Assembly: GCF_056746865.1 (NCBI RefSeq)
Contig: NZ_CM163382.1
Strand: one strand, 5' to 3'
Length of the DNA stretch: 64,000 bases
Below the pieces are notes generated by a model, which was not told the DNA's origin, searched no databases, and saw nothing but the letters and a program-made list of their open reading frames with translations. The translations under genes were made by a program, and so were the position numbers. Positions 12,523 through 53,731 of the stretch are shown here, in pieces; position 1 is the first letter of the stretch; every line of letters begins with the position of its first letter.

Positions 12523-13239
12523 TCAGTTTGCCAGCGCCGCCTTCTGCGTCGCTACAATGGATTCGATTCCCCCTCGGGCCAGCGCCAACAAGGTGAGTAG
12601 CTCTTCATGGGTGAACGGCTCGCCTTCTGCCGTTCCCTGCACTTCAATGATACGCCCGTCTTCGGTCATCACTACGTTCATGTCGGTCTCTGCGGCTGAG
12701 TCTTCAACGTATTCCAGATCGCAAACCGCTTCGCCGTTCACAATCCCGACAGAAACCGCGGCTACCATCCCTTTCATCGGGTTGGTTTTCAGCTTGCCGT
12801 TTTCCACCAGCTTCTGTAGCGCATCTGCCAGCGCCACGCAGGCACCCGTAATCGACGCGGTACGCGTGCCACCATCAGCCTGAAGCACGTCGCAGTCCAG
12901 CGTAATAGTGAACTCACCCAGCGCTTTCAAATCTACTGCCGCGCGAAGAGCACGGGCGATCAGACGCTGGATTTCCATGGTGCGTCCACCCTGCTTACCT
13001 TTCGCCGCTTCACGCGCGTTACGGGTGTGGGTAGAACGTGGCAGCATGCCGTACTCTGCGGTGATCCAGCCCTGGCCCTGACCTTTCAGGAAGCGCGGCA
13101 CGCCTTCTTCAATAGAGGCGGTACACAATACTTTGGTATCGCCAAATTCGACCAGCACCGAGCCTTCTGCATGTTTTGTATAGTTACGAGTCAGGGTAAC
13201 GGGACGCACCTGATTATTGCTACGGCCTGCTGGACGCAT
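12523..13239 (-). CDS. rph: ribonuclease PH (full length, no K-12-type rph-1 frameshift)
   Basis: [58 protein letters not shown]...; 238 aa with an intact C-terminus. Confidence 0.95.
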
Positions 13240-14336: not shown

Positions 14337-14360
14337 CGTGTACATAGAGGTGTACATAAT
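14337..14360. repeat. left boundary direct repeat of the island (putative attL): cgtgtacatagaggtgtacataat
   Basis: 22 of 24 identical to 35327-35350; flanked by further TGTACA palindromes at 14365-14390. Confidence 0.6.
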
Positions 14361-14417: not shown

Positions 14418-15677
14418 ATGCCAAAACTCACAGATATGCAGATCCGCGCATGGATAAAGGCGGGAGACAGATTTGATGGCAAGGCAGACGGCAACGGCCT
14501 TTATATTTGCTACCCCAAAAACTACACAGTCCCGTTCTGGCGATTCCGCTATAAGCTCGCAGGAAAGCAGCGGGCTATGGTTATAGGCTCTTACTCCGAA
14601 CTGTCACTATCAAAAGCCAGAGAAACAGCAAAAGAGCTGTCAGCCAGAGTTGCTCTTGGCTATGACGTAGCAGCAGAGAAACAGGAACGAAAAGCTGAAG
14701 CACTGGCAAAAATGGAGGCTGAGAAAAACGCCATGCGTGTTTCAGATCTGGCCTCCGAATACTTCGAGCGCCAGATACTTCCGAGATGGAAACATCCCGA
14801 TATCCTTCGCCGGAGAATTGATAAGGATATTAACCCCTGCATTGGGCATATGAAGGTGGAGGACGTTAAGCCACGCCACATTGACGACATGTTGAAAGGT
14901 ATCGTTGACCGAGGAGCACCAACGATAGCAACAGATGTATTACGCTGGACACGCCGTATCTTTGACTATGGGATAAAACGCCATGCTCTGGAGATAAACC
15001 CTTGTTCAGCGTTTGAAGTATCTGATGCTGGTGGTAAAGAGGTTTCCCGCGACCGTTGGCTAACTCGCGATGAGCTTATCAGGCTATTCGAGGCTATGCG
15101 CACCGCAAAAGGATTCAGCCGCCAAAACGAACTGACATTTAAGCTATTGCTGGCACTATGCGTTCGTAAGATGGAGTTATGCGCCGCACGATGGGAAGAG
15201 TTTGATTTAGATAGTGCTGTATGGCATTTGCCGGAAGAACGCAGCAAAAACGGGGACCCTATTGATATACCTCTACCTTCTCCAGCCGTTGAATGGTTGA
15301 GAGAGCTACACACCTTTTCATGTAATAGCGCATGGGTGCTTCCAGCCAGGAAGATGCAAAACAGAATGATCCCACATATTCAGGAAAGCACTTTACCCGT
15401 AGCACTGGCTAAGGTTCGCGCCGAAATGCCGGATGTGCCTAATTTCACGATTCACGACTTCCGACGCACCGCACGTACTCATTTAGCAGCGTTGGGTGTT
15501 GATCCTGTTGTGGCGGAACGATGCCTCAATCATCGCATTAAGGGCGTAGAGGGGATTTATAACCGCCATCAGTATTTTAATGAGCGTAAAGCAGCACTGG
15601 CACAGTGGGCTGATCTGCTGGTGGCACTGGAAAGCGGAAAAGACTACAACGTAACGCCTCTCAGAAGGGCGAACTAA
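14418..15677 (+). CDS. int: tyrosine recombinase, P4/CP4-57 integrase family
   Basis: MPKLTDMQIRAWIKAGDRFDGKADGNGLYICYPKN... with C-terminal HDFRRTARTHL...NHR...IYNRHQY catalytic region; 419 aa. Confidence 0.9.
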   Translation: MPKLTDMQIRAWIKAGDRFDGKADGNGLYICYPKNYTVPFWRFRYKLAGKQRAMVIGSYSELSLSKARETAKELSARVALGYDVAAEKQERKAEALAKMEAEKNAMRVSDLASEYFERQILPRWKHPDILRRRIDKDINPCIGHMKVEDVKPRHIDDMLKGIVDRGAPTIATDVLRWTRRIFDYGIKRHALEINPCSAFEVSDAGGKEVSRDRWLTRDELIRLFEAMRTAKGFSRQNELTFKLLLALCVRKMELCAARWEEFDLDSAVWHLPEERSKNGDPIDIPLPSPAVEWLRELHTFSCNSAWVLPARKMQNRMIPHIQESTLPVALAKVRAEMPDVPNFTIHDFRRTARTHLAALGVDPVVAERCLNHRIKGVEGIYNRHQYFNERKAALAQWADLLVALESGKDYNVTPLRRAN

Positions 15678-15902
15678 CTGAATAGATTGAGCCTAGCTCG
15701 ACGGGGCGAAAAGCGGGAAGCCTTACCGCCTGGCTCAATCACAAAATAAGGCGCAGCGTAAAAGGTGACGCAATGAACGACTCTCATGAAACAACTGCGG
15801 TGCATAGAAATTAGACTGGCCCCCTGAATCTCCAGACAACCAATATCACTTAAATAAGTGATAGTCTTAATACTAGTTTTTAGACTAGTCATTGGAGAGC
15901 AG

Positions 15903-16268
15903 ATGATTGATGTCTTAGGACCGGAGAAACGCAGACGGCGTACTACACAGGAAAAGATCGCTATTGTTCAGCAGAGTTTTGAACCGGGAATGACGGTCTC
16001 CCTTGTTGCCCGGCAACACGGTGTGGCAGCCAGCCAGTTATTTCTCTGGCGCAAGCAATACCAGGAGGGAAGTCTTACTGCTGTGGCCGCAGGAGAGCAG
16101 GTCGTTCCTGCCTCTGAACTTGCTGCTGCCATGAAGCAGATTAAAGAACTCCAGCGCCTGCTCGGCAAAAAAACGATGGAAAATGAACTCCTTAAAGAAG
16201 CCGTTGAATACGGGCGTGCAAAAAAGTGGATAGCGCACGCGCCCTTATTGCCCGGGGATGGGGAGTAA
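15903..16268 (+). CDS. insC: IS2 transposase OrfA (InsC)
   Basis: [53 protein letters not shown] matches IS2 InsC. Confidence 0.9.
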
Positions 16269-17131
16269 GCTTAGTCAGCCGTTGTCTCCGGGTGTCGCGT
16301 GCGCAGTTGCACGTCATTCTCAGACGAACCGATGACTGGAAAGATGGTCGCCGCAGCCGTCACTCAGATGATACGGATGTGCTTCTCCGTATACACCATG
16401 TTATCGGAGAGCTGCCCACGTATGGTTATCGTCGGGTATGGGCGCTGCTTCGCAGACAGGCCGAACTTGATGGTATGCCTGCGATCAATGCCAAACGTGT
16501 TTACCGGATCATGCGCCAGAATGCGCTGTTGCTTGAGCGAAAAACCGCTGTACCGCCATCGAAACGGGCACATACTGGCAAAGTGGCCGTGAAAGAAAGC
16601 AATCAACGATGGTGCTCTGACGGGTTCGAGTTCCGCTGTGATAACGGAGAAAAACTGCGAGTCACGTTCGCGCTGGACTGCTGTGACCGTGAGGCACTGC
16701 ACTGGGCAGTCACTACGGGCGGCTTCGACAGTGAAACAGTACAGGACGTAATGCTGGGAGCGGTGGAACGCCGCTTCGGCAACGAGCTTCCGGCGTCTCC
16801 AGTAGAGTGGCTGACGGATAATGGTTCATGCTACCGGGCTAATGAAACACGGCAGTTTGCCCGGATGTTGGGGCTTGAACCGAAGAACACGGCGGTGCGG
16901 AGTCCGGAGAGTAACGGCATAGCAGAGAGCTTCGTGAAAACGATAAAGCGTGACTACATCAGTATCATGCCTAAACCAGACGGGTTAACGGCAGCAAAGA
17001 ACCTTGCAGAGGCGTTCGAGCATTATAACGAATGGCATCCGCATAGTGCACTGGGTTATCGCTCGCCACGGGAATATCTACGGCAGCGGGCCAGTAATGG
17101 GTTAAGTGATAACAGGTGTCTGGAAATATAG
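16226..17131 (+). CDS. insD: IS2 transposase OrfB (InsD), DDE integrase domain
   Basis: 301-aa ORF overlapping insC in another frame, as in IS3-family frameshifted transposases. Confidence 0.9.
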
Positions 17132-18188: not shown

Positions 18189-18392
18189 ATGAACACCGAC
18201 ACTATTCCTACAAAAGGCTATATCAGACGCTTCCGCCTGGCTGAATTGCTGGGCGTTAGTGTATCCACCATCGACCGTAAAGTAAGAAACGGTTCACTAC
18301 CACGTCCGGTAAAGCTGGGAGAAAAAATAACTGCGTTTGATGCGGTTGAGATTCACAACTGGCTGGCAGAACGCCGCGGGAAGGTGGTCTGA
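18189..18392 (+). CDS. alpA: AlpA/Vis-family excisionase-like transcriptional regulator
   Basis: 67 aa; RFRLAELLGVSVSTIDRKVRNGSLPRPVKLGEK...WL pattern typical of AlpA. Confidence 0.85.
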   Translation: MNTDTIPTKGYIRRFRLAELLGVSVSTIDRKVRNGSLPRPVKLGEKITAFDAVEIHNWLAERRGKVV

Positions 18393-18823
18393 TGGAAAAG
18401 AAAAACCGCCCATTACAGGCGGCTAATTCAGATATTCGCGTATCTGATGTTACGCCCCTTACAAAATCCCTTCAAGCACCAAAGCGCACACCGAAAAAGC
18501 ATCGTGCCAGAGTCTATATGCTGCGTACTGGTATAGAGGGATGGACAGAAAATGACATTCTTCGCTACTGCCGTCTGTCTTCTGGTCGTAACTATGCAAC
18601 AGAGTTAGAACGCCAGCTTGGAATCACTCTGGAGCGTATCGACGAAAAGAATCCTGATGGTATCGGAACACACCTTCGCTACCGTTTCTCCTGCCGTGGT
18701 GATGTTCTGAAAGTGATCACTCATGTTAACCATCTTGCGAGCATAAATGATCACAACGGACTTTCTCAGCAGGAAATTGCCGACATTCTGAAACTCTACC
18801 CGGACGCGTTTAACGCCGCCTAA
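18392..18823 (+). CDS. hypothetical protein (143 aa)
   Basis: ORF start overlaps the alpA stop (ATGA); no recognisable motif. Confidence 0.6.
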   Translation: MEKKNRPLQAANSDIRVSDVTPLTKSLQAPKRTPKKHRARVYMLRTGIEGWTENDILRYCRLSSGRNYATELERQLGITLERIDEKNPDGIGTHLRYRFSCRGDVLKVITHVNHLASINDHNGLSQQEIADILKLYPDAFNAA

Positions 18824-18835
18824 CGGAGACTGAAA

Positions 18836-19669
18836 ATGAACATCGAAAAAAGCAGATTAATTTCTGAGGCCGCCCCTCATCTGAACGCCTCTCTGGGCAC
18901 AATTAACGGTAATGAATTTGCCGCAATTGTCCCGGTTATTCCTGGTCATATCGGTGGGCGTGAAACCAATATTGTTAGCGCAAAAGCGTTACACAAAGCG
19001 TTGGGCGTGGGAAAAGACTTCTCTACATGGATCACTGATCGCATCTCTGAATATGACTTCACCATTGGGCACGATTACTCAGTCCATAAAACAATTTCCC
19101 CAAATTTGGGGAAAAGCCCGAATGGCGCGGCTTACAGCAAGATTAAGCAGTCTGGCAGACCCGGCAAAGACTATCTGTTAAGTGTCGGAATGGCGAAAGA
19201 ACTGGCAATGATCGAACGCAATGATCAGGGTCGCGCTATCCGTCGTTATTTCATCCAGTGCGAGGAAGAATTACAGCGTAGCGTGCCTGAAATCGCCGCC
19301 CGCTATCGTCGCCAGCTAAAAGCCCGTATCAGTGCCGCAAACAACTTTAAGCCAATGTGCGATGCGCTGAATATGGCCCGTGCCGAGCAGGGGAAAACGA
19401 CGCAGCAACACCACTACACAAACGAGAGCAATATGATTTCTCGTATCGTTCTTGGTGGGCTAACTGCTAAGCAGTGGGCGCGGATAAATGGCTATTCTGG
19501 CGAACCTCGCGACCATATGAACGCAGAACAACTTGAGCACCTCTCATATCTCGAAAGCACCAATATCACGTTAATTGATATGGGCATGGAATATGAGCAG
19601 CGCAAAGGAGAACTCACCCGCCTGTCGCAACGCTGGCTCGCCAAGCGTCTGGAGGCGGTCCATGTTTAA
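18836..19669 (+). CDS. phage antirepressor-like protein (KilA-C/Ant-type C-terminal region)
   Basis: 277 aa; C-terminal segment ...GRAIRRYFIQCEEELQ resembles antirepressor proteins; assignment from memory. Confidence 0.55.
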   Translation: MNIEKSRLISEAAPHLNASLGTINGNEFAAIVPVIPGHIGGRETNIVSAKALHKALGVGKDFSTWITDRISEYDFTIGHDYSVHKTISPNLGKSPNGAAYSKIKQSGRPGKDYLLSVGMAKELAMIERNDQGRAIRRYFIQCEEELQRSVPEIAARYRRQLKARISAANNFKPMCDALNMARAEQGKTTQQHHYTNESNMISRIVLGGLTAKQWARINGYSGEPRDHMNAEQLEHLSYLESTNITLIDMGMEYEQRKGELTRLSQRWLAKRLEAVHV

Positions 19670-19837
19670 GCCGACAGGAACACCACAACCTCAAAAACGC
19701 TACAAAGATGCCCACGGAGCACTCGTTACTGTCGAAAGCGTGTCTCACAACCGAGTGACGTTTTATCGCGACGGGTATCAATCGCCATGCGTACAACCGC
19801 TGGCGCGCTTCATGAAGGAGTTCGCGGAGGTTAACAA

Positions 19838-20869
19838 ATGCTAACCGTCCAGAAGAAGATATTTTCACTGACTGCTATGTTGCAAAAATCCAGCAATATG
19901 ACAGCAAAGTCTGGCATTAATACAGCAGATACAAGCAAAGCTTATCATTTTATGGTGGTAGGAGCGGATGCCTTAACTATGTCAGAAATTACGGTCGATG
20001 GTGTTAGCGTTGAGAAGGTCAGCGGCTGCGCCAGAGAATTTCTGGTCGTAGATGGCTTTCTCTTCTCGCGTAGTGACTCCACAAAAACCTTCGTCCATGC
20101 GCGTGACGTTAACGAAATGAGCGCGATGTACTGTGCATCTGGTGCTTCCAATAGCGAGTTTTCGGAGTCCATAAAAAAGAGCTTGCCGTTATGCGGCAAC
20201 ACGGTTTATGGTTATAAGGCACCTCATAAAACGGGTGCCGGGATTGGCCTCCCGCTGGAGTTATCGGCGATACATGACGCGCCAGCGTCTTTTTTTGTAT
20301 CGGCGCACACGCACACCTTATCAATGGTGGGCTGTATGGGGCTACCTTCGGGTAGGCTGGTTTCCGATAACGCCAGTAAGGCCAACTCCGTACAGTCCAC
20401 CGCCAGCAAGATTGGTCTCTTCTGCGGTGGTTATAACAAGCCAACGTTATCGGAGGATGCCACATGCTGGCTACTACCCCTACCCAAAAACCGCAATTTA
20501 TCTGGATTATCGCCGCAGTTCGCCGCGATTGCCCGACAATTACCGCCAAAATTCATCATATTGCTGCCGAGTCTGAACGTGATGCTCGCCGTTCTCTGGT
20601 GCGCGATCACGTCTGCTTTTTTGCTGGTCGTATCCGCATGGAGGTGGCTCATGATTAAAACCTACGATGTGCATATGGATCCCCTCGAACGCACAAGCCA
20701 GATCATCACACTGACAGAAGTGATTAACGACATTCTGGTGAGCAACTCTCCCTCACGAGACGAAAGACTGAAGGCGTTACTCGCGATATTGGATCTCGCC
20801 GTTCGTGACGTTCATTTCCTGCTGGAAGGTGGCGAAATGCCAGTAAAAACGGGGGCAACCAATGAATAA
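19838..20869 (+). CDS. hypothetical ORF (343 aa as read; may instead be two or three small genes)
   Basis: Long open frame, but an alternative-frame small ORF 20464-20658 has a GGAGGA SD and an in-frame internal start MIKTYD at ~20654 has a GGAGG SD; gene structure unresolved. Confidence 0.3.
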
Positions 20870-21056
20870 CTCAATTAATACCCCTCGCCTTACGTCCGCA
20901 CTTCAATTAATCGAGCAAGCAGCGGCTGTCCTGGTTGCTGTCAGTCTTTCGGCTGAAGAAATGGACGCTACTGATGTCGTGGATGCGATTAAAGCGTGCT
21001 CATCTTTGGTTAACGATGCCCGTGCAGAGCTGGTAATTCTTGGGGGTGAAAAATGA
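20862..21056 (+). CDS. hypothetical small protein (64 aa)
   Basis: Start overlaps the upstream stop; part of a co-directional overlapping ORF chain. Confidence 0.45.
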   Translation: MNNSINTPRLTSALQLIEQAAAVLVAVSLSAEEMDATDVVDAIKACSSLVNDARAELVILGGEK

Positions 21057-21316
21057 ATATCAACTTAATTTATCGTCATCCGTGTGAGCTGGAAATTGAA
21101 TCATTGCTGAGCCGTGAAGAGCCATATCCAGACACATTCACTCTTGCAGATCGCACGACTGAACGGCTTACCAGAGCGCGCACAGGTCTGGTTCATGTGA
21201 TGAATGAGATTCTTCCATCGGTGGGAGGGGAACAGGCGACAGTAATCACTAGCTGGCTACAAAAAGTTACCTCTCTGATAGATATCAGTTTAATCGATGC
21301 GGAGAGTGCGAAATGA
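21053..21316 (+). CDS. hypothetical small protein (87 aa)
   Basis: ATGA overlap with the upstream ORF. Confidence 0.5.
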   Translation: MNINLIYRHPCELEIESLLSREEPYPDTFTLADRTTERLTRARTGLVHVMNEILPSVGGEQATVITSWLQKVTSLIDISLIDAESAK

Positions 21317-21534
21317 CCAACATCCAGCTCATTGAAGCGCAATGTCGCATCGAACAGGTTCAGACTGTTTTAGGGTTCTGGCTTGAAGGGGCCAGCCCCA
21401 GCAACAGAGACAAGTTAATGATTGGCGCGGTTATGTCACTGCTCAATGGCGTACCAGAAGCTATTCAGGAAGCAGACGAATTGTTGGGCAAATATGAGTT
21501 ACAGAATCATTCAGGCGAGGCGAAACATGAATAA
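21313..21534 (+). CDS. hypothetical small protein (73 aa)
   Basis: ATGA overlap with the upstream ORF. Confidence 0.45.
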   Translation: MTNIQLIEAQCRIEQVQTVLGFWLEGASPSNRDKLMIGAVMSLLNGVPEAIQEADELLGKYELQNHSGEAKHE

Positions 21535-22129
21535 TTTCTTAACGTTCCATGCAGAAGCAACGCCTGACGGCGTAAACATCATGCACCGCAGCAACGATGG
21601 CATGACAGAACGCGTTGAGGCCGTCTCATATATTGATGCCGTAAATCGTCTGGATGACGGGGATTATGACGATAAACCAGATGAAGGTATGTCAATACAT
21701 CTCGCTATTGCCGATGGCGGCAACCAGGGATATTTCGATTACACATCACAGCATAACGTCATTATGTGGAGATGGCTGATCGCAACAGTATTCATGCTGG
21801 AAATGAGAGAGGAAAACGGCACTGTCAGCATCATTGATGATACTGGCAATCCTTCCGAAGTGGCTGTTTATTCCAACGGCATCGTCGCCATGCCGCTGTA
21901 TCCAGTAGCAGAGCGCCTCGCTATGGCAAACAACATTGAGGGCGCGATGATAGAACGTTTTGGCATCGAGTCTGGCACAGAACGCGCCATCATTTTCTAC
22001 AGAGCCATGATGGATGTGGAACAAGGAGCACTGACTCCATTTGGTCGTGAAACGCTTGCTGAACTTCACAACAGCTTTATAGCTGAACTGAATGAAAACG
22101 GCATGCCAGCGGAACCAGTGACGCACTAA
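21527..22129 (+). CDS. hypothetical protein (~201 aa, start at MNNFLTFHAE)
   Basis: Internal start overlapping the upstream stop; acidic protein. Confidence 0.55.
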   Translation: MNNFLTFHAEATPDGVNIMHRSNDGMTERVEAVSYIDAVNRLDDGDYDDKPDEGMSIHLAIADGGNQGYFDYTSQHNVIMWRWLIATVFMLEMREENGTVSIIDDTGNPSEVAVYSNGIVAMPLYPVAERLAMANNIEGAMIERFGIESGTERAIIFYRAMMDVEQGALTPFGRETLAELHNSFIAELNENGMPAEPVTH

Positions 22130-22139
22130 GGATGGAGCC

Positions 22140-22481
22140 ATGATTACTAAAAATTTCCGACTGAATGCGCTGGCAAATAAGTATGCGTCGGCACTGTATA
22201 ACCACATTACCTCCACCAGCGGCGGGGACTATTTCATGATTGATGCGGACGGAGAGGCCGTCCGTGTGGAAATCGTCAATGGAGTAAAAGGCGTTCGCAG
22301 CCTGATCGATAGTTACGCACTGGCAGCCATGAAAGTGTTCTACCCGCAGTGGGAAACCGTGGGGATCGAGCTTCTTGATCGTTGCGTCACTAAGGACGGA
22401 TTGACTGACGCCGGGCGTGAGATATGGCAAAGCATGGTTAATGACATGGGCGCAACTGTAGCGGGAGGTTCTCATGCGTGA
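22140..22481 (+). CDS. hypothetical protein (113 aa)
   Basis: Co-directional, closely spaced. Confidence 0.55.
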   Translation: MITKNFRLNALANKYASALYNHITSTSGGDYFMIDADGEAVRVEIVNGVKGVRSLIDSYALAAMKVFYPQWETVGIELLDRCVTKDGLTDAGREIWQSMVNDMGATVAGGSHA

Positions 22482-22845
22482 AAATGCAGAAATGGCGCTT
22501 AGCTCCGCAATCGGAGAGCAGGTGGCAAAGATTGCTGGTGCTGTGTGGATTCATAACCTTCATTCTACTGGTGAAGAGAAAATGGCAATTCAGACGCCAG
22601 AGGGACGCACCATTACTACATCTCTGAAGCCGTCAGATGTTTGTGATCTGATTTGCGCATTCATGTACCCAGCAATGAGGACTGTCCACGGCGATAAGTG
22701 GAAACTTGCGACAACCGCTGAATTTGATATGTGGCTAAACAATGATGGCATGCTGACTGATTACGGAATAACCAAGTGGCAGATGCTGGTTAGCCATATC
22801 GCAAACGCTATAGACCACGTGGGGTACGGTGATGCGAAACATTGA
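22474..22845 (+). CDS. hypothetical protein (123 aa)
   Basis: Overlaps neighbours at both ends. Confidence 0.55.
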   Translation: MRENAEMALSSAIGEQVAKIAGAVWIHNLHSTGEEKMAIQTPEGRTITTSLKPSDVCDLICAFMYPAMRTVHGDKWKLATTAEFDMWLNNDGMLTDYGITKWQMLVSHIANAIDHVGYGDAKH

Positions 22846-33115: not shown

Positions 33116-33665
33116 CTAATAAGCCCGGTACGCCGGGCATTTATGCCCCTATTATTCATGAATCGCTTTTTCTAGAAGGTATGCGACAAACGTTAAGTGA
33201 CATTGCCTACACATTCGGGGCGGGATTTCAAATCCGCTCCCAGTTGATGGGGGGCGTTACAGTACGCGCATATCCGCTTTATGTGAAACAGGAAGATTTT
33301 TCTGATATCACTGCCACAGCAAAACACCAATTTCGTGACCAGTACGCGCGCGAGGGGCATCAGTTGCAAAAAGTTTTGCAACTGCGTCCGACCAGTACAC
33401 ACACGATGGCGGTGGATACCATAAAACTGTTCTCTACATGAGACAGAGTGGTGGTGATGTGTTGATTATCGGCGTATATGCGCACAGGTCGCGCTATGAC
33501 GATGTTTTATGCGGGTACACCAATCACATGTATCTGATGTGATAAATCGCGTTACATGACCTCTCTGTTGTGCTGGTGGTTATCACGACGTTCTGAATCT
33601 GGCTTTTGTCTGATATTTTGCGACAAGTACGCGCGCGTAGCATCGACAGCATACACATTGGATAT

Positions 33666-33887
33666 TCATTTTGTGACCAATGCGATAAGTAGCGGGATAA
33701 GCATTGATAAAATCAACAGGCCGATGATCCACTTTTGATTTTCACTGGCCTTATCTCTATTTTCATCAATCTTATCCATAATTCGACGCTCCAAGCCGTG
33801 CATATCACCGCGAATGGCAATTATCTCATTGCGAACATCCGAGAAGTGGTTGGCTTGATGTTCAATGTGTGGCGTTCTGCCTTTCAT
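33666..33887 (-). CDS. small protein with C-terminal transmembrane helix (73 aa)
   Basis: C-terminal WIIGLLILSMLIPLLIALV. Confidence 0.4.
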   Translation of the reverse strand: MKGRTPHIEHQANHFSDVRNEIIAIRGDMHGLERRIMDKIDENRDKASENQKWIIGLLILSMLIPLLIALVTK

Positions 33888-33966
33888 GCCTGATCCTCAC
33901 CCATCGTCACCACCTGCTGGTGTATAAAGGTATTGGCCCAAGCAGCTTTCCAATGGGCACTCATGT

Positions 33967-34422
33967 TTATACGCTGACCTTACAATCAATCACCGCTTTT
34001 AACTTTTCAGCATTGCTTCCCTGACGCTTCCACGCGCTGTAAATATCTTTATCCCACGCTTTACCAGCTTTTGTTTGATAGCCTGCTTCATTGATCCGTT
34101 CAGCTATCACACGCCCATTATCAAATCCCTGTTGGATGGTATCGGCAATGATCTTTATAACTGCCGTTTCGTTATATGGCTTTGGTGGGATGTTCGACTT
34201 TCCGGCAATAAGCGACGCAGCGGCTTTTTCCATGCGCTCCACCAGCCCAAGCATTCGTGAATCAATAGACTTTTCCGGCTGTCCCAGCTTCATGCGAATC
34301 GCATCAACAAGCCAGGAGGTTTTATCCCCTCCAGAAGCGAGAACAGACCGATTAAACTCATCCTGCAATTCAGATGGGATGCGGAACGCGACCAGATTAG
34401 ATTTGCTCATTGCAAAGACCAT
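33967..34422 (-). CDS. hypothetical protein, possible DNA-binding regulator (151 aa)
   Basis: Divergent from the PerC-like gene across the operator array; start may be at MSKSNL. Confidence 0.5.
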   Translation of the reverse strand: MVFAMSKSNLVAFRIPSELQDEFNRSVLASGGDKTSWLVDAIRMKLGQPEKSIDSRMLGLVERMEKAAASLIAGKSNIPPKPYNETAVIKIIADTIQQGFDNGRVIAERINEAGYQTKAGKAWDKDIYSAWKRQGSNAEKLKAVIDCKVSV

Positions 34423-34523
34423 ATCAGTGAGTAATATCCATACAGTATACCACTGTATAACACTGTTATACGCTCAAATATCAGCCAGAAAATAACGAAC
34501 CAATCACAAATCTATCGCTGTGT

Positions 34524-34645
34524 TGTTGGTTCAGAGCTGGGCTGTGTTGGTTCAAAATGAGTTGATGTTGGTTCAATATTTTAGAAAAAACGCAATAAAA
34601 ACAACGATCTTTACAAATTGAACCAACTGAACCAACTGAACCAAC
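34524..34645. promoter_or_regulatory. operator array: three TGTTGGTTCA copies at 21-bp spacing plus three tandem TGAACCAAC copies in inverse orientation
   Basis: tgttggttca at 34524, 34545, 34566; tgaaccaac x3 tandem at 34619-34645; tatataat -10-like box at 34661-34668 before the 34682 start. Confidence 0.55.
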
Positions 34646-34681
34646 ACCTTTTTGCTTATCTATATAATCTGAGAGGCAGAA

Positions 34682-34969
34682 ATGATAAGGGACAGGAAAG
34701 CTGAAGAGCTGGAGTCAAAAGGGCTATACCGGAGAGCTGCCGCACGATGGGCAGAAGTCATGATGCTGGCAGATGGCGATAAAGAACGTGAACATGCAGC
34801 AAACAGACGCTCTGAATGTATCCGTAAGGCGGCACGCCCACCAGCAACTACAGACAAATTCGGAGATTTAAGACAGGCAGTTAAGCGGACTCATTCGGCT
34901 CTTGGTATGGATGAGGAAGCGAGAGGGTACTTCAGGCGTTATCGCGATAAAGATTGCCAGAGACAGTAA
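34682..34969 (+). CDS. PerC-family transcriptional activator-like protein (95 aa)
   Basis: AEELESKGLYRRAAARWAEVM resembles the PerC/Pch family signature; from memory. Confidence 0.55.
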   Translation: MIRDRKAEELESKGLYRRAAARWAEVMMLADGDKEREHAANRRSECIRKAARPPATTDKFGDLRQAVKRTHSALGMDEEARGYFRRYRDKDCQRQ

Positions 34970-35326
34970 TGCTCTATCTGTTTTGGCAAATTACCCCTCA
35001 CTTTGAAGGGATCGGAGCTATAAAAATGGTGTTATCCGGCTTCCTGCATTGCAGGTTTTCGAAAAAATCAATGGGTTAGGTCATCGTGCAAATTTGCACT
35101 CTGCCAGCCAACGCAATTTCTCGTTGGCGAAAATATCAGGTATTTACTGATTCTGCCGCCTCACAAGGATGCGAGAACCTTATAAAACCTAATATCGCAG
35201 AGCTTAATTGTGTACAGCAATTTCACGAGCAATACGCGCGCGCAGGACAACAAGCCTGAACATGGTTACACACCTCGATCGTGAGGGATGTAGGCAATGG
35301 CTTCTGACCAAAGCACCCGAAAAAAC

Positions 35327-35350
35327 CGTGTACATAAGGGTGTACATAAT
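35327..35350. repeat. right boundary direct repeat of the island (putative attR): cgtgtacataagggtgtacataat
   Basis: 22 of 24 identical to 14337-14360. Confidence 0.6.
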
Positions 35351-35580
35351 CAAAAATCGCATTAGGAAGAAACCAGATACAATGCGGCATTGAAGCCAAT
35401 ACTCTACAAACAGATCCAAACTCGTAACGCCAATTCTTCCTTTTCAGCCTTCACAAATGCCGCCCACTCAAACAGAGCGGCATTTTTCCTCCCCGCAACA
35501 TTCAATTCTGTTTTGCGTGCCTGCTCCAGATTTTGCGATGTTTTTTTGCCCAGCGCAGTGAGAACGTGAGATACTTACAA

Positions 35581-35596
35581 CTGTATATAAACACAG
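35581..35596 (+). promoter_or_regulatory. LexA box (CTGTATATAAACACAG) in the dinD promoter
   Basis: Matches the CTGT-N8-ACAG SOS box, about 45 bp upstream of the dinD start. Confidence 0.8.
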
Positions 35597-49913: not shown

Positions 49914-51144
49914 AAATCAATCTCGCCGGGTACGACTCAGACGTACCCGGCATTCCGTCAATAGATTACAACGTAATTGTCAGCGCATTCCCTTGAGGCG
50001 TCACCACCAGCCCCTGCTCACTTTCAGCCTGCGAACCGCCTTGCAGACCATTTACTTTCACAACATTGCGCAAGCACAGTGTCCAGTTCTTCGCCTCGCC
50101 CGCACCAGTCACAGTAATCGTGTTACCAGTACGTGTTGCTTTTAGAGTAAAGATCACCGAACCGTCAGCAGCGGGCACTTCACAAAGAGCTTCATGCCCG
50201 TCTTGCAGATTAAAGAGATGGAATGCCGTGCCTTCGTGCCACGCGTAATCGGGACGTTGCTCGTTGTTGCCCAGCGCCAGTAGGGTGTTATCACGCACAT
50301 AAACGGGCAGACTCAGGAAGCTGTGCTGCTGTTTATGCCAGCGACTACCATCGAGTTCATCGTTGTGCCACAGATGTGTCCAGCGACCTTCCGGCAAGTA
50401 GAACTGCACATCGCCCGCTTCAGTGAACACCGGAGCAACCATCACGTTGTCGCCTAACATGTATTGACGGTCAAGGTAATCACAAGCCGGATCGTCCGGG
50501 AACTCCATCATCATGGCCCGCATCATCGGCGTACCCCGCGCGTTCGCACGAGCAGCTTCACGATACAGATACGGCATCATGCGGCATTTCAGTTGCGTGA
50601 AGAAGCGCACCACATCACAGGACTCATCATCATAGGCCCACGGCACACGATAAGATTTGCTGCCATGTAAACGGCTATGGCTGGAGAGCAAACCAAACGC
50701 GCACCAGCGTTTGTAAACGTGCGCCGGAGCGGTATTCTCAAAGCCGCCGATATCGTGGCTCCAGAAGCCAAAACCTGAAAGGCCAATAGACAAACCACCG
50801 CGCAGGCTTTCCGCCATTGATTCGTAGTTAGCGTAACAGTCGCCACCCCAGTGTACCGGGAATTTCTGCGCACCAACGGAGGCCGAGCGAGCAAACAAGA
50901 CGGCTTCTTCCTGGCCAACGGTTTCCTTGAGCACGTTCCACACCAGTTCGTTGTAGATGTACGCATAATGGTTATGCATTTTCTGCGGATCGGAACCGTC
51001 AAACCATTGAACATCGGTTGGAATACGTTCGCCAAAGTCAGTCTTAAAGCAATCAACGCCCATCGCGACCAGACCTTTCAGTTTGTCGGCGTACCATTTG
51101 CAGGCATCCGGATTGGTAAAGTCATAAATCGCCAGACCTGGCTG

Positions 51145-52570
51145 TAATGCCGATCAGTTAAGGATCAGTTGACCGATCCAGTGGCTGTGTAAGAATCCGG
51201 AAACGCTCACTTGTTTCCGGATTTTTTTATGCACATTGGACAGGCTCTTGATCTGGTATCCCGTTACGATTCTCTGCGTAACCCACTGACTTCTCTGGGG
51301 GATTACCTCGACCCCGAACTCATCTCTCGTTGCCTTGCCGAATCAGGTACTGTAACGCTACGCAAGCGCCGTCTTCCCCTCGAAATGATGGTCTGGTGTA
51401 TTGTTGGCATGGCGCTTGAGCGTAAAGAACCTCTTCACCAGATTGTGAATCGCCTGGACATCATGCTGCCGGGCAATCGCCCCTTCGTTGCCCCCAGTGC
51501 CGTTATTCAGGCCCGCCAGCGCCTGGGAAGTGAGGCTGTCCGCCGCGTGTTCACGAAAACAGCGCAGCTCTGGCATAACGCCACGCCGCATCCGCACTGG
51601 TGCGGCCTGACCCTGCTGGCCATCGATGGTGTGTTCTGGCGCACACCGGATACACCAGAGAACGATGCAGCCTTCCCCCGCCAGACACATGCCGGGAACC
51701 CGGCGCTCTACCCGCAGGTCAAAATGGTCTGCCAGATGGAACTGACCAGCCATCTGCTGACGGCTGCAGCCTTCGGCACGATGAAGAACAGCGAAAATGA
51801 GCTTGCTGAGCAACTTATAGAACAAACCGGCGATAACACTCTGACGTTAATGGATAAAGGTTATTACTCACTGGGACTGTTAAATGCCTGGAGCCTGGCG
51901 GGAGAACACCGCCACTGGATGATACCTCTCAGAAAGGGAGCGCAATATGAAGAGATCAGAAAACTGGGTAAAGGCGATCATCTGGTGAAGCTGAAAACCA
52001 GCCCGCAGGCACGAAAAAAGTGGCCGGGACTGGGAAATGAAGTGACTGCCCGCCTGCTGACCGTGACGCGCAAAGGAAAAGTCTGCCATCTGCTGACGTC
52101 GATGACGGACGCCATGCGCTTCCCCGGAGGAGAAATGGGGGATCTGTACAGTCATCGCTGGGAAATCGAACTGGGATACAGGGAGATAAAACAGACGATG
52201 CAACGGAGCAGGCTGACGCTGAGAAGTAAAAAGCCGGAGCTTGTGGAGCAAGAGCTGTGGGGTGTCTTACTGGCTTATAATCTGGTGAGATATCAGATGA
52301 TTAAAATGGCGGAACATCTGAAAGGTTACTGGCCGAATCAACTGAGTTTCTCAGAATCATGCGGAATGGTGATGAGAATGCTGATGACATTGCAGGGCGC
52401 TTCACCGGGACGTATACCGGAGCTGATGCGCGATCTTGCAAGTATGGGACAACTTGTGAAATTACCGACAAGAAGGGAAAGGGCCTTCCCGAGAGTGGTA
52501 AAGGAGAGGCCCTGGAAATACCCCACAGCCCCGAAAAAGAGCCAGTCAGTTGCTTAACTGACTGGCATTA
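51145..52570 (+). mobile_element. IS4, 1426 bp, 18-bp terminal inverted repeats, 12-bp target-site duplication CAGACCTGGCTG
   Basis: Ends taatgccgatcagttaag and cttaactgactggcatta (16/18 match as inverted repeats); TSD at 51133-51144 and 52571-52582. Confidence 0.9.
51229..52557 (+). CDS. insG: IS4 transposase
   Basis: [34 protein letters not shown] matches IS4 InsG; 442 aa. Confidence 0.9.
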
Positions 52571-53731
52571 CAGACCTGGCTGCCATTTATCCCACTGCCA
52601 CAGCGAACCGTCCGGGCGTTTGAGTAAATAGCCTTTCTCTTGTAACTCTTTAAAGACAGGGGATTTTTGCCCGATATAGGGGTTAATCCAGACGCAGATT
52701 TTCAGCCCTTTCGCTTTCAGGCGGCGGATCATCCCTTCCGGGTCCGGGAAAGTCAGCGGGTCCCACTCAAAATCGCACCACTGGAAGGCTTTCATCCAGA
52801 AACAGTCAAAGTGGAAAACATGCAGTGGCAGATTGCGTTCCGCCATACCATCGATAAAGCTGTTTACCGTCGCTTCGTCGTAGTTGGTGGTAAATGAAGT
52901 GGTTAGCCACAGACCGAAGGACCACGCGGGCGGCAGCGCCGGACGACCAGTAAAACGGGTATAACGATCAAGTACCGCTTTCGGCGTCGGGCCGTCGATA
53001 ACAAAGTATTCGAGATATTCACTCTCAACGCTGAACTGCACTTTGGAGACTTTCTCCGCTCCCACTTCAAAAGAGACGCATTGAGGATGATTGACCAGTA
53101 CCCCATAACCACGGTTAGTCATATAGAACGGGATATTTTTATACGCCTGTTCAGTACTTGTGCCGCCGTCCCGGTTCCAGGTCTCTACCGTCTGGCCATT
53201 GCGCACCAGGGCAGTAAAGCGCTCACCCAGACCGTAAACTGTTTCGCCAACGCCAAGATCCAGCCGCTCAAACATATAATTTCGTTGATTATTCGTGTCC
53301 TGCACGTAGCCATTATTTTTCACCTGACTACCGGTAATACGTTCGCCGTTGCGCAGAAAATCCAGTGACCAGAACTCACCTTTGCTGACACGCGCGCTTA
53401 AGTTGCCACTTTTAAACTCAGCGTAACGTTCTGTGTTTTCGATTGTGACCTTCACGTCCTGCAAAATATTGAGCGGATAATGAGGACCGTTATTCAGCGC
53501 CCCCTGAAAATGCTCAATCCGTACACCGACAATACCTTCCTGTGGGGAGAAAAAGCGCAGCGTAAATAAAGGCGTATCAAGCTGCCAGGTTCGTTCACGC
53601 ACATCACGGGGGGCAGCATAGACCACCATTTCATTACCCTGCTGTTCAACCTCGAACACCTGAAGCGGGTGAATCAAATTGAGGCCAGGTTGAATCAACC
53701 AGTTTCCATCGCTAATTTTCATTGCCGTTCC

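Follow-up and report, generated by a model that had tools for sequence, protein, structure and literature searches.

The open reading frame at 34682-34969 (plus strand, ATG start, 95 aa), which is the final gene of a genomic island before its right end in the 64-kb stretch of DNA analysed here (the window), encodes a genuine PerC-family member. We consider it fairly probable (about 0.7) that this gene is the PerC component of an EcCIMP1-like phage-inducible chromosomal island (PICI), that it is controlled by an origin-type repeat array, and that its product acts via other regulators. The reading is built on the observed family membership, island type, synteny, repeat array, homology to ANR proteins and lack of association with the eip locus, and it extends from there to a likely protein-protein mechanism, to a probable control by the array and to candidate targets. 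The finding is largely ordinary: a 2025 study already covered this island type, including tests of its PerC-like gene, and the window contributes an allele of an established family, carried by a sort of phage satellite that has recently been characterised. Only two aspects might reward further study, namely the homology to ANR proteins and the origin-linked placement of perC. Three points are also corrected by the analysis: perC is carried by a phage satellite, likeness to PerC does not make a protein a T3SS activator, and the proximity to eip is coincidental.

PerC-family membership and homology to ANR proteins

The 95-aa protein matched the PerC profile PF06069 with 115.5 bits (E = 1.3e-33), far above the gathering cutoff of 22.6, and residues 1-89 were aligned with profile positions 1-89 of 90. 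A sequence-only reading of the window had taken the product of 34682-34969 for a PerC/Pch-family protein and proposed an HMM search as a check; this full-length match, together with the invariant residues described below, bore the assignment out. The protein also matched the phage family phrog_994 with 128 bits. In an alignment of 39 PerC-family members the invariant core consists of D4, L10, E11, G14, Y16, R17, R18, A20, R22, W23 and C46, and all 11 of these residues are kept in the 95-aa protein. The protein database contains copies 96-99% identical to it, named "PerC family transcriptional regulator" by NCBI, and relatives from E. coli, Salmonella and Citrobacter at 45-69% identity. It forms a separate subgroup within the PerC family, and annotation of the gene as a PerC-family regulator is already present in hundreds of E. 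coli genomes.

A second match was obtained with the NCBIfam model NF033650 (ANR), in which residues 5-52 of the protein were aligned with positions 7-54 of the 54-position model (24.4 bits, E = 1.9e-5). Because this score is below the curated cutoff of 32, the protein is an ANR homologue and not an ANR member. The same model was matched at E <= 0.01 by 27 of the 39 PerC-family members (best 1.6e-7), and Pick et al. had noticed ANR matches for EcCIMP1_025, the PerC-like protein of the island EcCIMP1 (PMC11773190). This family-wide N-terminal homology between PerC and ANR proteins suggests that PerC proteins may work through contact with other proteins.

The AF2 model of the 95-aa protein is all-helical with a mean pLDDT of 78.5. 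Helices 5-13, 16-29 and 33-50 were predicted at a pLDDT of about 90, and helices 57-73 and 81-85 with less confidence. No DNA-binding domain was detected in the protein. A sequence profile search of the PDB returned only noise at E > 3, and a Foldseek search of the AF2 model against the PDB gave nothing below E = 2.6, the hits being generic TPR/MIT-like helical hairpins only.

The ANR proteins Aar and Rnr regulate hundreds of genes, including those of the LEE, via contact with AraC/XylS regulators, H-NS and Ler (PMC10148876). Because of the ANR homology and this ANR mode of action, binding of nucleoid-associated or AraC-type regulators would be the most likely mode for the protein of the window. 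It would thus most likely alter transcription by binding H-NS-family silencers or AraC-type activators, most likely with no specific promoter recognition of its own, and host genes would be affected broadly, in a manner that varies with allele and host. In the literature examined, we found no report of H-NS or AraC-protein binding by any PerC-family protein.

An EcCIMP1-like satellite and the array at the perC promoter

The window is a piece of E. coli chromosome with the order waa-mutM-coaBC-dut-slmA-pyrE-rph-yicC, island, dinD-yicG-ligB-gmk-rpoZ-spoT-trmH-recG-gltS-xanP-yicH-yicI::IS4-yicJ-selC-setC-yicL-nlpA-yicS-eicA-eipB-eipC. Alignment to the empty site of K-12 placed the island at 14230-35420 (21.2 kb, plus strand, right end approximate), between yicC and dinD. 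The foreign DNA begins directly after the yicC stop codon (14230) and stops at about 35420, just upstream of the dinD promoter and LexA box, and the insertion is clean relative to both K-12 and strain 118UI. Close to the two ends lie the two plus-strand copies of a 24-nt imperfect direct repeat (repeat family D5), a candidate integrase-binding or att-proximal site. The left copy (CGTGTACATAGAGGTGTACATAAT) is at 14337-14360 and the right copy at 35327-35350; they are 92% identical and 20,990 bp apart.

The gene content of the island was taken partly from the RefSeq annotation of the near-identical island of G749. All genes named here are on the plus strand unless stated otherwise. A tyrosine integrase of 419 aa (14418-15677; Arm-DNA-bind_3, Phage_int_M and Phage_integrase domains) stands at the left end. 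Between it and the AlpA gene an IS3-family element has inserted at 15858-17131, with orfA at 15858-16268 and the rve transposase at 16226-17131 (HTH_21, rve and rve_3); the G749 island has no such element at the corresponding position. The AlpA-family regulator of 67 aa (18189-18392; PF05930, 34.3 bits against a cutoff of 21) is followed by an AntA/AntB antirepressor (18836-19669) and an Ash-family protein (19838-20869), a pair supported by PF08346 and PF10554, and then by the gene of an Icd-like protein. The primase/replicase of 784 aa comes next (22829-25183; phrog_2249 DNA primase, 313 bits; the G749 homologue is annotated DUF5906), with a four-gene P22-type head-morphogenesis/DNA-ejection module at 27098-32266 (phrog_651, phrog_598, phrog_917 and phrog_770) behind it. 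A 232-aa putative lipoprotein, a few small ORFs, a divergent 151-aa ORF and finally perC complete the island, and its right-end region is mosaic with repeated fragments.

The integrase at one end, followed by an AlpA regulator in the same orientation, is an arrangement expected of an EcCIMP1-like PICI, and the size of 21.2 kb, which includes about 1.3 kb of IS3, is in keeping with the expected 10-20 kb or so. Compared with EcCIMP1 of strain MP1, the island is 94.6% identical over 18382-23853 (5.5 kb) and 98.7% identical over 26515-33646 (7.1 kb), so that 12.6 kb in total is shared at 95-99% nucleotide identity; the ejection module is 98.7% identical to EcCIMP1_017-019 and their neighbours. Experiments on the commensal E. 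coli MP1 established EcCIMP1 as a PICI that the P22-like phage Kapi1 mobilises (Pick, Stadel & Raivio, ISME J 2025, PMC11773190), and its excision, replication and transfer on induction of the helper Kapi1 have been demonstrated (PMC11773190). EcCIMP1-like elements vary in their integrase, AlpA and PerC (PMC11773190).

Judged from its gene set and nucleotide identity, the island appears to be an EcCIMP1-like PICI, that is, a phage satellite and not a prophage. The location of perC on a mobile island, as the sequence-only reading had it, is confirmed by the insertion relative to the empty K-12 site and by the likeness to EcCIMP1. A prophage as the carrier, like those that it named for the related activators of attaching-effacing E. 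coli, was rejected in view of the satellite gene set and the near-identity to the validated EcCIMP1; no capsid, tail, lysis or lambdoid regulatory genes were found in the gene content of the island, only P22-type ejection/head-morphogenesis genes. A P4-like satellite was also considered, for which the Icd-like, Ash and alpha-like primase genes could speak. The PICI label was preferred because psu/delta/sid-type genes are absent and the island is near-identical to a validated PICI. The island probably exploits a P22-like helper. Because of the IS3 element inside it, it may no longer be mobile. A PADLOC search detected no known defence system among the variable genes of the island, and its weak DrmC/PDC matches (IS3 orfA and a 322-aa ORF) were regarded as chance.

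A probable perC promoter was read by eye, with a perfect -10 hexamer TATAAT at 34663-34668 (plus strand); a Shine-Dalgarno sequence, GAGAGG, is present at 34671-34676 (plus strand). The -35 position lies within the last repeat of an array at 34525-34645, of the type found at PICI origins, in which six exact TGAACCAAC copies overlie the perC promoter. A strict consensus scan near perC found no two-hexamer sigma-70 promoter, which agrees with a weak or occluded -35. Three minus-strand copies start at 34525, 34546 and 34567 (21-bp spacing), an AT-rich spacer follows, and three plus-strand copies start at 34619, 34628 and 34637 (9-bp spacing). Apart from these six, a single exact TGAACCAAC is present elsewhere within the 64 kb.

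The same composite TGAACCAAC array occurs twice in EcCIMP1, once upstream of perC and once, inverted, directly after the primase, the latter being the canonical position of a PICI origin. Canonical E. coli PICI origins, which lie in the gap between primase and SSB, show the same grammar of 9-bp tandem and 21-bp inverted repeats, built from the 9-mers TGCGGGTTA or TGGGACAAC. The canonical arrays examined were those of the PerC clusters P0016 and P0042 (six places, with more distant PerC genes) and of OI-51. In all six places, and in OI-51 with its PchE gene as well, the gene order is AlpA...DUF927 primase, origin gap, SSB, (ProQ), PerC and packaging genes. Since the same order is kept in every PICI examined, PerC-family genes are a fixed, origin-proximal component of E. 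coli satellites of this kind. PICIs of Gram-negative bacteria commonly carry PerC variants (PMC6092414, PMC11773190).

In the window, the array adjoins perC at a distance of 9 kb from the island's primase and has the exact grammar of a PICI origin. It is thus an origin-type structure, and a working origin, a regulatory operator and a recombination relic are its candidate roles. Any of the three is conceivable, because the C-terminal part of the window's primase differs from that of EcCIMP1 and because the repeats that follow this primase are different ones (ACCTGTACCACCTATACC at 25213, 25298 and 26364). The divergent 151-aa ORF (33967-34422, minus strand) has a ribbon-helix-helix-like N-terminus and is, by inference, a candidate binder of the array. 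It had no match in Pfam, NCBIfam or PADLOC and a weak match to phrog_30270. The ORF accompanies perC in G749 and many other genomes and is missing from EcCIMP1.

With the origin-type TGAACCAAC array directly overlapping its promoter, perC would probably be governed by the protein bound to the repeats, be it the replicase or the product of the divergent 151-aa ORF, and its expression would probably be coupled to the satellite cycle. The conserved origin-(SSB)-PerC block and the iteron-covered promoter likewise hint at an expression tied to satellite replication.

This arrangement also raises the possibility that PerC serves the satellite in its dealings with the helper, either by switching on packaging or ejection genes or by interfering with the regulation of the helper phage, with effects on host virulence being incidental. 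We regard such a role as tentative. The position between replication and packaging modules is fixed in the examined PICIs, the promoter lies within an array of the origin type, the protein belongs to a phage family, and the gene occurs widely in commensals and shows no relation to T3SS content. However, Pick et al. treat the gene as accessory and report no life-cycle role for it (PMC11773190), and in the window's island, as in EcCIMP1, perC comes after the ejection module and not before it.

Direction of regulation and the eip locus

The 95-aa protein was compared with EPEC PerC (pMAR2), PchA (Sakai prophage Sp4), PchE (Sakai OI-51/Sp7 = PICI EcCIEDL933) and EcCIMP1_025. Among these characterised members PchE is the closest (56% identity), followed by EcCIMP1_025 (51% by alignment; 54% over 85 aa by BLASTP), PchA (49%) and EPEC PerC (44%). 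PerC and PchA/B/C are activators of LEE1/ler (PMC6265319, PMC11773190). PchD and PchE have little effect on the LEE, and PchE represses csgD/curli (PMC6265319). LEE1 does not respond to the PICI-borne PerC-like proteins of EDL933 and CFT073, and EcCIMP1_025 silences a LEE1-lux fusion in C. rodentium in a dose-dependent manner (PMC11773190). Porter et al. 2005 is the key comparison of PerC-like proteins, and its conclusions are used here as they are reported in PMC11773190 and PMC6092414.

PchA and EPEC PerC both activate although they share only 47% identity, and the family contains activators as well as a repressor; neither sequence nor percentage identity therefore tells in which direction a member regulates. 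The nearest tested relatives are non-activators. The label "activator" in the sequence-only reading was therefore not sustained: the protein is 44-49% identical to the activators PerC and PchA and closer to PchE and EcCIMP1_025, which do not activate. The function of PchE is not assumed to transfer to the protein of the window either.

With such relatives, the protein could be an anti-virulence, ANR-like repressor that lowers the expression of host adhesion and secretion genes, with EilA/eip/air, curli and flagella as possible targets. This is conceivable, and we would not put it above a minority view. The protein shares island type and gene position with EcCIMP1_025, along with an identical promoter and identical first 23 residues; its nearest characterised relative, PchE, is a repressor of csgD/curli; and ANRs, to which it is homologous, repress the LEE and adhesion (PMC10148876). 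On the other hand, the protein body after residue 23 has been swapped for another allele and may be the seat of functional specificity. The LEE, the known target, may also be absent from this strain, as it was not evident within the window and selC is unoccupied.

The sequence-only reading had further placed a SipB/C/D-like translocon locus about 25 kb from perC. This is correct: eicA starts at 59984, at a distance of 25.0 kb. The window holds 59984-63673 (plus strand, outside the island) of the eip ("selC-B") locus, with eicA, eipB and eipC downstream of selC-setC-yicL-nlpA. They encode a class-II chaperone (eicA, 59984-60481, TPR_3), a SipB/SseC-domain protein (eipB, 60728-62509, T3SSipB and SseC) and a 383-aa protein (eipC, 62522-63673), which is a hypothetical protein in the RefSeq annotation of an identical locus. 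In that annotation the series is SycD/LcrH chaperone, SctE, hypothetical protein, IpaD/SipD tip protein, EilA and EaeX/Air. The window cuts the locus at eipC, and in strain 118UI the genes for the tip protein, eilA and eaeX/air come next. The eip locus (eicA, eipB, eipC, eipD, eilA, eaeX/air) is an ETT2 accessory with its own HilA-like regulator EilA (PMC7058095, PMC4210603), and ygeH, a related ETT2 regulator, is silenced by H-NS (PMC4210603). The ETT2 secretion apparatus itself, at glyU, is outside the window.

In strain 118UI the eip locus is 100% identical over 4.8 kb and yicI carries the same IS4 insertion, yet yicC adjoins dinD and the island is absent. The association was then counted in 5426 complete E. 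coli genomes, with 33900-35400 as the query for the perC module; any megablast match was counted, so paralogous modules are included. The module was present in 730 genomes, eipB in 734 and either of them in 1354. By inclusion-exclusion over these three counts, the two occur together in 110 genomes against 98.8 expected (odds ratio 1.16, Fisher p = 0.20, with no correction for phylogeny). P(eipB | module) is 0.151 and P(eipB | no module) is 0.133, and 85% of the module-bearing genomes are without eipB. The number of places per record hit by a composite island and eipB query was rejected as a readout of co-occurrence, being ambiguous through paralogous perC modules at other sites. Hence perC and eipB are found together about as often as chance would give. 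ETEC, STEC and commensal lineages from a wide range of hosts commonly carry the module.

Because 118UI lacks the island, co-occurrence is at chance level and the module is spread across ETEC, STEC and commensals, a dedicated link between perC and eip is disfavoured. No sequence evidence favours cross-talk between the two, and their presence in one 64-kb window is a coincidence. With EilA as the locus's own regulator in addition, the regulatory cross-talk that had been put forward for this pair is unsupported.

A wider form of the idea would treat PerC-family proteins as core, origin-linked satellite regulators and no longer as sporadic virulence cargo; they would consist of an ANR-type module and a C-terminal extension and would act on regulators of the H-NS family or AraC type. 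In a phylogroup-D-like eip host, which probably carries ETT2, this allele could then shift the H-NS-silenced EilA/eip/ETT2/air regulon on satellite induction. We consider it improbable; if true, the activity of a phage satellite would be linked to a cryptic type III system.

It is more doubtful still that a PerC/Pch-type activator from the mobile element switches on the eip operon, directly or via EilA, as PchABC do with ler. The protein is a true family member, an identity of 44-49% to PchA and EPEC PerC is compatible with activation given that these two share no more than 47%, and a gene silenced by H-NS, as ygeH is, represents the type of target open to an H-NS-directed regulator. Against this stand the silencing of LEE1 by EcCIMP1_025, the inert PICI copies of EDL933 and CFT073, the lack of a LEE effect of PchE, the missing island in 118UI beside an identical eip locus, the chance co-occurrence, the possession of EilA by the eip locus, and the absence of the PchA/B C-terminal tail from the window's protein.

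Finally, it is very improbable that perC is a non-functional leftover, decaying at the margin of a degraded island: the IS3 element, the mosaic right end and the truncated PerC ORFs common in databases would suit it, but the ORF is of full length with all invariant residues, a good ribosome-binding site and a perfect -10, and its near-identical copies are found in many genomes.

Comparison with known systems

With the ANR family (Aar of EAEC, Rnr of EPEC and C. rodentium), the protein shares the three-helix module in its N-terminal half. It differs in being about 40 residues longer, owing to an extra C-terminal part, and in its genomic setting, as ANR genes usually lie beside AraC-type regulators and not in satellites.

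PerC and PchA/B/C belong to the same Pfam family and have the same invariant N-terminal motif KG(L/F)YRRAA.RW, but they are carried on the EPEC pEAF plasmid (PerC) or on EHEC lambdoid prophages (Pch). PchA has 104 aa with a 10-residue C-terminal extension, which the 95-aa protein does not have. With 49% identity to PchA, no such extension and a PICI as the carrier (pchA is in prophage Sp4), the protein of the window falls outside Pch group 1. PchE (ECs1588, O157:H7) is nearer in its setting, being PICI-borne and encoded downstream of primase, origin and SSB, although its island is of another PICI lineage, with capsid, portal and terminase genes.

The system most similar to that of the window is EcCIMP1 with EcCIMP1_025. 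The islands differ in the integrase and attachment site, which is thrW/proA in MP1 and yicC-dinD in the window, and in the C-terminal part of the primase. EcCIMP1 also has the second array copy after its primase, and a divergent alpA_1 where the window has the 151-aa ORF. The gene body of the window's perC is another allele after residue 23 (about codon 28). Because identity to EcCIMP1 is kept through residue 23 and another allele follows, a recombination joint lies inside the window's perC. In other respects the likeness is close: the island type is the same, perC is the last gene behind the same TGAACCAAC array, the whole promoter and residues 1-23 are identical, and both proteins have a sub-threshold ANR match.

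Lineage and dinD side of the insertion

In the window, yicI (alpha-xylosidase) is interrupted by an IS4 element (49966-53722; transposase 51211-52557), and the same insertion was found in strain 118UI. This common IS4 insertion marks one lineage, within which the PerC island is present in the window and missing from 118UI. The LexA box of dinD, CTGTATATAAACACAG, lies at 35581-35596, some 160 bp beyond the right-hand end of the island, and was called as a hairpin by the terminator scan. The SOS-regulated dinD promoter of the window was undamaged by the insertion of the island. In genome G749, which carries the same island, dinD has been lost.

Mobile element and cargo within the island

An IS3-family element (orfA and an rve transposase, 15858-17131) sits between the island integrase and AlpA genes, while the G749 island is free of it. 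This insertion may impair the induction or mobility of the island.

Near the right end, three copies of a 23-nt repeat, ATTTCGTGACCAGTACGCGCGCG, were located at 33330-33352, 33615-33637 and 35220-35242, with identities of 83-100%. As the ORFs flanking these repeats share the short peptide motif QF.(D/E)QYAR.G.Q, the sequence of this region suggests either that pieces of one gene are repeated or that remnants of older island ends lie stacked here. Small cargo ORFs (33666-33887, minus strand, and 33181-33441, plus strand) lie between the gene of a 232-aa putative lipoprotein and the divergent 151-aa ORF, and gave no match in PADLOC. The product of one of them is 73 aa long, has a transmembrane helix at its C-terminus, and matches phrog_6324 and, weakly, SLATT. 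Because EcCIMP1 confers an unexplained superinfection immunity, this variable slot could be the home of an undescribed defence gene.

Repeat arrays at the primase and perC genes

In some genomes (L008-L010, 10051-10353), two PerC-family genes of 95 and 100 aa are found about 4 kb apart within one satellite region, adjoining a SocA_Panacea-domain gene and a Phage_Nu1 gene.

A PICI-origin-type iteron array of TGAACCAAC (34525-34645) overlies the perC promoter of the window, with three copies every 21 bp, an AT-rich spacer and then three copies every 9 bp. Unlike this array, the repeat downstream of the primase gene is ACCTGTACCACCTATACC(ATT), with two exact copies 85 bp apart (25213-25318) and a third copy 1 kb beyond (26364-26379). 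These repeats fall where the island sequence departs from EcCIMP1, and may represent the cognate origin of, or a binding site for, the primase allele of the island.

EcCIMP1 itself (L004) contains two copies of the iteron array, one behind the primase gene (12736-12856) and the other ahead of perC (21276-21396), whereas the window and G749 contain only the perC copy. The grammar of the perC-promoter array recurs in canonical PICI origins, which are built from different 9-mers.
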